Below are positions 51,048-51,292 of a stretch of 64,000 bases of DNA, piece after piece. The notes below the pieces were generated by a model. That model saw only the letters and a list, made by a program, of their open reading frames with translations, searched no databases and was not told the DNA's origin. Each line of letters starts with the position of its first letter. Position 1 is the first letter of the stretch. Source of the stretch: a virus (Duplodnaviria > Heunggongvirae > Uroviricota > Caudoviricetes); the IMG/VR virus record IMGVR_UViG_3300032304_000977, positions 64,001-128,000 of that record. One strand, 5' to 3'. The position numbers were made by a program, and so were the translations under genes.

Positions 51048-51083
51048 AAAACAAAAAACCCCAAGGACTTTCATCTCTTGGGG
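51048..51083 (-). terminator. Intrinsic terminator (putative attenuator)
   Basis: CCCCAAG(A)GA-TGAAAG-TC-CTTGGGG followed by TTTTTTGTTTT. Confidence 0.75.
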
Positions 51084-51112
51084 CACTTTGGTTTGAAGAC
51101 TTGTATCTTACT

Positions 51113-51226
51113 TTACCTAGTAACCCCCACGATCTCTGGATTATATCCAAATGAACCTGTGCGTGCATCTAATGACCATGTTCTAATGGCTTTCTGACTT
51201 ACGAGATGCGAACACATTTGTAACAT
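51113..51226 (-). CDS. Putative 37-aa leader peptide containing all 20 amino acids
   Basis: MLQMCSHLVSQKAIRTWSLDARTGSFGYNPEIVGVTR*; AAGGA upstream; sits between a promoter and a terminator. Confidence 0.55.
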   Translation of the reverse strand: MLQMCSHLVSQKAIRTWSLDARTGSFGYNPEIVGVTR

Positions 51227-51263
51227 TTGAATTTCTATTCCTTTTTCAATCATCGAGGTATCA

Positions 51264-51292
51264 AGTATACCTCTTTTATTTATATATGTCAA
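51264..51292 (-). promoter_or_regulatory. sigma70-type early promoter upstream of the leader ORF
   Basis: TTGACA-N17-TATACT. Confidence 0.8.

Follow-up and report, generated by a model that had tools for sequence, protein, structure and literature searches.

The element described here, which lies immediately ahead of a phage tRNA array, is likely to be a ribosome-dependent leader-peptide transcription attenuator whose short open reading frame (ORF) samples nearly all amino acids and codon boxes a single time each. Judging from its sequence, it probably raises the production of phage tRNAs when decoding is slow. It was found in the window, by which we mean the whole stretch of 64,000 nucleotides of viral DNA analyzed, which belongs to an IMG/VR virus record of 146.6 kb (about 90% complete). 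The architecture of the element, its open frame, the selection on its amino acid alphabet, the covariation of both of its hairpins and its invariable position ahead of tRNA genes are observed directly in the window and among related phages, and are laid out below.

From these features we infer that the ORF is translated, in which direction the switch turns and what triggers it physiologically. In the proposed mechanism, RNA polymerase would start at the promoter P1, in most relatives exactly at the AUG, which would yield a leaderless mRNA, and a ribosome would trail the polymerase through the 32-45 codons of the leader. During fast decoding, the ribosome positioned on the last codons and the stop codon would cover the 5' strand of an antiterminator; with this strand covered, the terminator would form and transcription would stop before the tRNAs. 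When an aminoacyl-tRNA becomes scarce, be it through starvation, host shut-off or cleavage by an anticodon nuclease, the ribosome would lag behind, the antiterminator would take the 5' arm of the terminator and the polymerase would read through into the array. The outcome would be a negative feedback on decoding capacity. In such a scheme the position of the ribosome has to decide the structure of the RNA, and the modeled geometry would allow this, since the final codons of the ORF are part of the antiterminator 5' strand.

Table 1. Features of the putative attenuator, the tRNA array and their surroundings (window coordinates)
Feature	Position	Strand	Remarks
MazG-domain gene, 95 aa	51576-51289	-	stop codon overlaps P1 -35 hexamer
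Promoter P1, TTGACA-17-TATACT, sigma-70-type	51292-51264	-	11/12 matches
Leader 5' UTR, about 31 nt	51258-51227	-	transcription start inferred from -10 position
Shine-Dalgarno-like AAGGA	51243-51239	-	12 nt 5' of ATG
Leader ORF, 37 codons + TAA	ATG 51226 to TAA 51113	-	all 20 amino acids
Mid-ORF hairpin CCAU...AUGG	51189-51176	-	RNA fold and family covariation
Antiterminator hairpin	51133-51074	-	G-run 51128-51124, stop 51115-51113, terminator 5' arm 51084-51077
Intrinsic terminator	51084-51048	-	interrupted stem 51084-51059, U-tract 51058-51048
Promoter P2, TTGACG-17-TATAAT	51009-50981	-	between terminator and first tRNA
Internal promoters	50200-50172 and 47516-47488	-	promoter scan
tRNA array, 27 genes	46005-50892	-	all 20 amino acids represented
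First array tRNA, tRNA-Glu	50817-50892	-	
RNaseH-like protein gene in tRNA array region	45503-45988	-	
2OG-Fe(II) oxygenase gene in tRNA array	46094-46669	-	
Metallophosphoesterase gene in tRNA array	46902-47465	-	
Gene like biotin-protein ligase N-terminal domain, in tRNA array	48595-49290	-	
Palindrome TAACCYT-N9-ARGGTTA, copy 1	51015-51037 (within 51011-51041)	-	directly upstream of P2
Palindrome TAACCYT-N9-ARGGTTA, copy 2	51616-51638		upstream of perfect promoter at 51611

The layout of the element and of the array, which is interspersed with protein genes, small RNAs and internal promoters, is given in Table 1. An earlier note on this DNA had proposed a promoter, a 37-codon ORF containing all 20 amino acids, an intrinsic terminator about 30 nt past its stop codon and a downstream array covering the 20 amino acids, and all of these parts were recovered at the positions listed. 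In five close relatives, the whole element is conserved at 79-82% identity with an intact ORF that again contains all 20 amino acids, both P1 hexamers are unchanged (5/5 in the alignment), and insertions and deletions within the ORF come in multiples of three.

The leader ORF of the window uses all 23 codon boxes, with Leu, Ser and Arg each split in two. Among the 232 ATG-started window ORFs of 30-45 amino acids, it is the only one, together with its nested start, that reaches 20 amino acid types. The earlier note had called for an estimate of how often random ORFs would do the same, and such an estimate gave a probability of 0.1-0.2% for random 37-40-mers of phage protein composition and of 0.25-0.7% for random codons, which corresponds to an expectation of about 0.25-0.7 all-20 ORFs per window. 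The all-20 ORF by itself is therefore a modest outlier, rare and not extraordinary, and as chance alone could yield about one such ORF per two to three windows, the case is decided by the relatives.

To this end, more than 590 related viral contigs were retrieved via the MazG neighbor, of which 80 were kept. Searches with a peptide HMM of the close clade, with an alignment-based scan and with a degenerate DNA pattern found the five close relatives and none further, and the distant relatives gave no match by BLAST or with the close-clade HMM. The wider family surfaced on inspection of the sequence just 5' of the first tRNA of these relatives, where a diverged homologous ORF of 32-45 codons precedes a terminator of the type seen in the window. 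With a broader HMM and an additional scan, the collection grew to 107 loci, representing 66 distinct peptides and 71 distinct nucleotide sequences, with a leader sequence identity between clades of 26-34%. The earlier note had asked for comparable leader-terminator units at the start of related tRNA arrays, conserved in composition and not in sequence, and this description fits the 107 loci. No cultured phage with the element was found in the GenBank phage collection. Metatranscriptome contigs hold 5-9% of the sampled words, a figure with no bearing on expression or habitat. In three related contigs (L010, L012 and L013), tRNA-Cys starts 21 nt past the MazG-like gene and the leader ORF was not detected there, indicating that some arrays of this phage group lack the element at that position.

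The association of the leader with tRNA genes was analyzed in the 72 unique loci with enough downstream sequence. In all 72, a tRNA lies at most 282 nt downstream of the terminator, the first one being tRNA-Gln(UUG) in 63 loci and tRNA-Glu(UUC) in the other 9. No promoter-like site is present between the terminator and this tRNA in 57 of the 72 loci, where the spacing is typically 50-54 nt, such that the promoter of the mini-ORF is the only recognizable promoter for the first tRNA block in these loci. A second promoter follows the terminator in 15 loci, the window included. Moreover, the -10 hexamer is located 6-7 nt 5' of the ATG in 54 of 77 loci, from which it follows that the transcript should start at the AUG and be leaderless; the remaining loci resemble the window in having a UTR, of 35-60 nt, with AAGGA.

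Several observations indicate that the leader ORF is maintained as a reading frame. Frame 0 is free of internal stops in 71 of the 71 unique sequences, whereas the +1 and +2 frames contain stops in 70 and 71 of them, respectively, and the ATG of the leader is invariant across the family. Third codon positions change most among close pairs, and the synonymous share of single-nucleotide codon changes amounts to 0.376 compared to 0.215 expected, corresponding to a dN/dS of about 0.45. On these comparative grounds the leader ORF looks translated. The dN/dS value points to weak to moderate constraint, as would be expected if amino acid composition and the overlapping RNA structure outweigh the peptide sequence, and it would also be compatible with a functional peptide.

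As to composition, 20 amino acid types are found in 35 of the 66 peptides, 19 types in 29 and 18 types in 2. At the codon level, all 23 boxes are used in 33 of the 71 unique sequences and 22 boxes in 35; both GGY and GGR are present in 68, ATA in 66 and TTA in all 71. The corresponding background, determined from 10,033 forty-residue windows of real proteins of the same phages, is 0.7% for 20 types, 6.8% for at least 19 types and 0.02% for 23 boxes. Permutation of the residues within alignment columns gave a mean of 18.16 types (sd 0.09) versus 19.50 observed, and an all-20 fraction of 0.10 versus 0.53 observed. We also simulated evolution along the family tree, keeping the number of parsimony changes per column and drawing replacements from the residues observed in that column. 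The simulated peptides contained 17.85 +/- 0.47 types and the observed values were reached in 0 of 400 runs, which argues that the full alphabet is maintained beyond common ancestry. Rare residues change position: Cys occurs exactly once in 63 of the 66 peptides, spread over 4 alignment columns, while single His (64/66) and single Tyr residues (63/66) are each distributed over 5 columns.

In complete arrays and under strict wobble rules, the leader codons touch 19-24 of the 22-25 non-CAU tRNA species. The untouched tRNAs are mostly four-box tRNAs with U34, which may read codons that are present, and tRNA-Leu(CAA) is the species usually left untouched. Val is missing from 27 of the 66 peptides, though phages with such leaders carry tRNA-Val(UAC) in their arrays; coverage is therefore not absolute and not one-to-one with array content. 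The idea that an amino acid missing from the leader reflects a tRNA missing from the array was rejected, as Val-less leaders precede arrays with tRNA-Val. In addition, the sole Asp codon (38/66) and the sole codons for Asp and Glu (about 55/66) often fall within the last 7-9 codons, at the margin of the antiterminator 5' strand. A ribosome stalled at these late codons may by then occupy the antiterminator's base and may not permit antitermination.

We next consider the RNA structures that would constitute the switch. In the window, the terminator consists of the GC-rich stem GCCCCAAG...CTTGGGG followed by T6GT4, starts 28 nt past the stop codon and is part of the minimum-energy structure (RNAfold), with a duplex energy of -20.6 kcal/mol. 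A simple terminator scan missed it as its stem is interrupted. The transcript from P1 (215 nt) folds more stably than shuffled copies (z = -4.98). Pairing between a G-run near the end of the ORF and the 5' arm of the terminator, which the earlier note had offered as a candidate antiterminator, was reproduced, as the corresponding hairpin forms at -16.7 kcal/mol when the 3' arm of the terminator is omitted. In the minimum-energy fold, the same G-run is paired with a CCUC in the 5' UTR, a possible anti-antiterminator in the modeled structure. The clade of the window differs in three respects, having a 5' UTR, an antiterminator (-16.7 kcal/mol) that is weaker than the terminator (-20.6 kcal/mol), and a minimum-energy fold that corresponds to the terminator state. 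Given this weaker antiterminator and the presence of P2 and internal promoters downstream, the element of the window is expected to modulate rather than gate the array, in line with a reservation already made in the earlier note, whose three further promoters were all present.

Across the family, every one of 57 unique segments analyzed (57/57) forms a single hairpin of 18-26 bp with an energy of -16 to -27 kcal/mol. Its 5' strand, which starts some 15 nt ahead of the stop codon, is formed by the final 5-7 codons together with the stop codon and spacer nucleotides, while its 3' strand includes the 5' arm of the terminator. Cognate strand pairs average -25.0 kcal/mol compared to -21.3 kcal/mol for non-cognate pairs between members, and 0 of 20,000 permutations were as good. 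Compensation is visible by eye, for example in UUUAAGAAAG with CUUUAUUUUCUUAAA, in UGGGAU with AUCCUA from a member with a wholly changed peptide end, and in UUUGGUAA/UUACCAAA against UUUUGGUAA/UUACCAAAA. Among 17 members aligned with MAFFT, 93.8% of the antiterminator cells are paired and 5 of 20 pairs are changed on both sides; this result lies above 500 of 500 shuffles, and slid controls are 37-66% paired. An Infernal alignment of 35 sequences raises the pairs changed on both sides to 8 of 20, with an alignment that leans towards the structure, and at E-values up to 0.01 the Infernal antiterminator model missed the clade of the window. RNAalifold recovered 4 pairs and no more from the MAFFT alignment of the antiterminator, a low number attributable to register shifts, for which reason alignment-free duplex tests and the Infernal-guided alignment were used instead.

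The terminator stem covaries as well, with 5 of its 7 pairs changed on both sides across the family, and a hairpin followed by a U-tract is found in every member except one. In this member (L099), the U-tract is broken after the terminator stem (GGGTTTCTTGCATT), which may point to an altered terminator or to one in decay. With terminator energies of -15.5 to -22.4 kcal/mol across the family, the antiterminator is in most cases the more stable of the two structures, and full-length minimum-energy folds adopt the antiterminator in 17 cases and the terminator in 10, a split such as would be expected for a switch. Taken together, the conserved open frame, an alphabet maintained beyond phylogeny, the covarying antiterminator and the position upstream of tRNA genes lend comparative support to the attenuator that the earlier note had suggested.

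An additional hairpin is located in the middle of the ORF, which reads CCACU-N4-AGUGG in members of the main clade and, for the clade of the window, CCAUN...NAUGG; 90% of its cells are paired and 3 of its 5 pairs are changed on both sides. By analogy to the trp and his leaders, it may represent a pause site for RNA polymerase. A few nucleotides downstream of this hairpin, the sequence CACGC (an Arg CGC codon and its flanks, at about 51165-51161 in the window) is invariant in 27 of 27 representatives and may mark a site of pausing or of RNA structure, or else a CGC codon that is fixed.

Other functions of the unit have to be weighed against this evidence. It could be an attenuator coupled to translation that reports ribosome engagement only, that is, availability, initiation or coupling, the diverse codons having no sensing role. 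The architecture would be the same, Val is often absent, Asp and Glu codons lie where stalling may not matter, and the whiB7 attenuator also answers to general translation stress (PMC10274678). We nevertheless regard this as unlikely, as it leaves unexplained why a complete alphabet and 22-23 codon boxes persist beyond phylogenetic inertia and why the codons for Cys, His and Tyr, each present singly, shift position instead of being lost. Quite unlikely, in our view, is an ordinary early gene for a small functional peptide, in which the all-20 content would be a by-product and the hairpin at the stop codon would stabilize the mRNA or tune the terminator. The self-contained unit of the window with its separate promoter behind it, the enrichment of synonymous changes and a motif conserved in the main clade (H-L-P-L-x-S-G-W) would all suit such a gene. 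This motif, however, coincides with the covarying mid-ORF hairpin, whereas the other peptide positions vary freely and rare residues shift and are never lost. Moreover, no other promoter precedes the tRNAs in 57 of the 72 loci, and a plain terminator would not need a longer competitor hairpin that covaries. A homologue of the leader was also not found in a set of 5.8 billion proteins, which weighs little as short ORFs often remain uncalled.

A structured non-coding leader with an incidental ORF, acting either in the processing or stability of the tRNA precursor or as a terminated small RNA in trans, appears very unlikely. The fold of the 215-nt transcript would fit such an RNA, as would the ORF region, which by itself folds at -23 to -35 kcal/mol, and terminated attenuator RNAs can act in trans, as reported for rnTrpL. 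The reading frame speaks against it: it is open in 71 of 71 sequences compared to 1 and 0 for the other two frames, its invariant ATG sits at the predicted +1 of the leaderless promoters, and its indels are in frame. Rfam, searched at gathering thresholds and also at E-values up to 10, placed no family on the element, neither a leader family nor anything T-box-like. A role in trans, furthermore, would not exclude attenuation.

With leader-peptide attenuation as the favored reading, the question arises how it relates to known systems. The classical enterobacterial leader attenuators comprise trpL, hisL, leuL, thrL, pheL and the multivalent ilvL. They share with the phage element a short ORF, an intrinsic terminator ahead of the genes under control and an antiterminator that cannot form alongside it and whose 5' strand can be masked by a ribosome on the last codons, but they carry runs of regulatory codons and target biosynthetic enzymes. 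The phage leaders contain no codon runs, most amino acids occurring once or twice per peptide, and in this respect they fall outside the trpL/hisL type. T-box riboswitches recognize a particular uncharged tRNA by direct binding and involve neither a ribosome nor an ORF; what they would have in common with the phage element is that tRNA charging is tied to read-through of translation-related genes via a competing terminator and antiterminator.

The closest published analogue is the uORF attenuator of whiB7 in mycobacteria, in which a diverse uORF senses the amino acids whose codons it holds, a single Trp codon being sufficient and the response to shortage of one amino acid alone being lost once its codon type is removed (for example Trp to Ala), and in which efficient translation leads to termination and slow translation to read-through (PMC10274678). 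The whiB7 uORF of M. smegmatis contains every amino acid except Cys, and that of M. tuberculosis lacks several (PMC10274678). Both systems combine a uORF of some length and varied composition with an antiterminator/terminator pair downstream of it. The target of whiB7 attenuation, in contrast, is a transcription factor rather than tRNA genes, and its uORF is enriched in Ala and has an alphabet that is incomplete across species, whereas the alphabet of the phage leaders is apparently selected; the phage element is, moreover, viral and mostly leaderless. There is no sequence homology between the two, which makes this an analogy and not membership. In mycobacteria, leaderless polycysteine ORFs are reported to be Cys-rich ORFs that control a downstream operon in relation to the supply of this one amino acid (bioRxiv 10.1101/834739). 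They resemble the phage leaders in that the AUG of a short regulatory ORF is also the 5' end of the mRNA, and they differ in being cellular, Cys-rich and dedicated to a single amino acid, as opposed to viral with a near-complete alphabet.

Full-text literature searches retrieved no account of leader-peptide control of tRNA genes. Ribosome-mediated attenuation as such is known; what is new is the putative tRNA-gene target, the proposed logic of sensing a complete alphabet and the frequent leaderless form. If the proposed function is true, this would be the first known attenuator of tRNA genes and the first with a complete amino acid alphabet as a selected trait, and leader-peptide attenuation would be extended from single-amino-acid biosynthetic operons to global sensing over RNA genes. 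The pattern of conservation further shows that a peptide can be under selection for its composition instead of its sequence. Near-complete phage tRNA sets have been debated as a means either to match codon usage or to replace host tRNAs lost to shut-off or defense; phage tRNA supply under feedback control, if true, would fit the replacement or counter-defense view. Whether freshwater T4-like phages carry such a general sensor of decoding capacity, in which the translation time of a mini-gene with about one codon per amino acid and codon box sets transcription of the full tRNA set via a terminator switch and tRNAs are replaced only when the host pool is depleted by starvation, shut-off or a tRNA-cleaving defense, is in our judgment about evenly balanced. 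The element is compact (about 190 nt), has sigma-70-type promoters and could serve as a natural biosensor of translation capacity.

Additional features were observed in the surroundings of the element. The palindrome TAACCYT-N9-ARGGTTA has two matches in the window where none (0) is expected by chance, and both copies end 5-7 nt 5' of the -35 hexamer of a strong sigma-70-type promoter. The same module is also found 5' of promoters in relatives, for example at the leader promoter of contig L055, and may be an operator or an insulating hairpin. Within the tRNA array, a sub-threshold match to YrlA, of the Y-RNA-like family, was obtained at 48347-48459 on the minus strand (41 bits, E 1e-6), near a gene for a DUF2828/DUF7788 protein at 43632-45065. 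Finally, the phage encodes a tmRNA (58976-59352, minus strand) with the tag ANDESYALAA, which matches the betaproteobacterial and permuted tmRNA models, hinting at a betaproteobacterial host.
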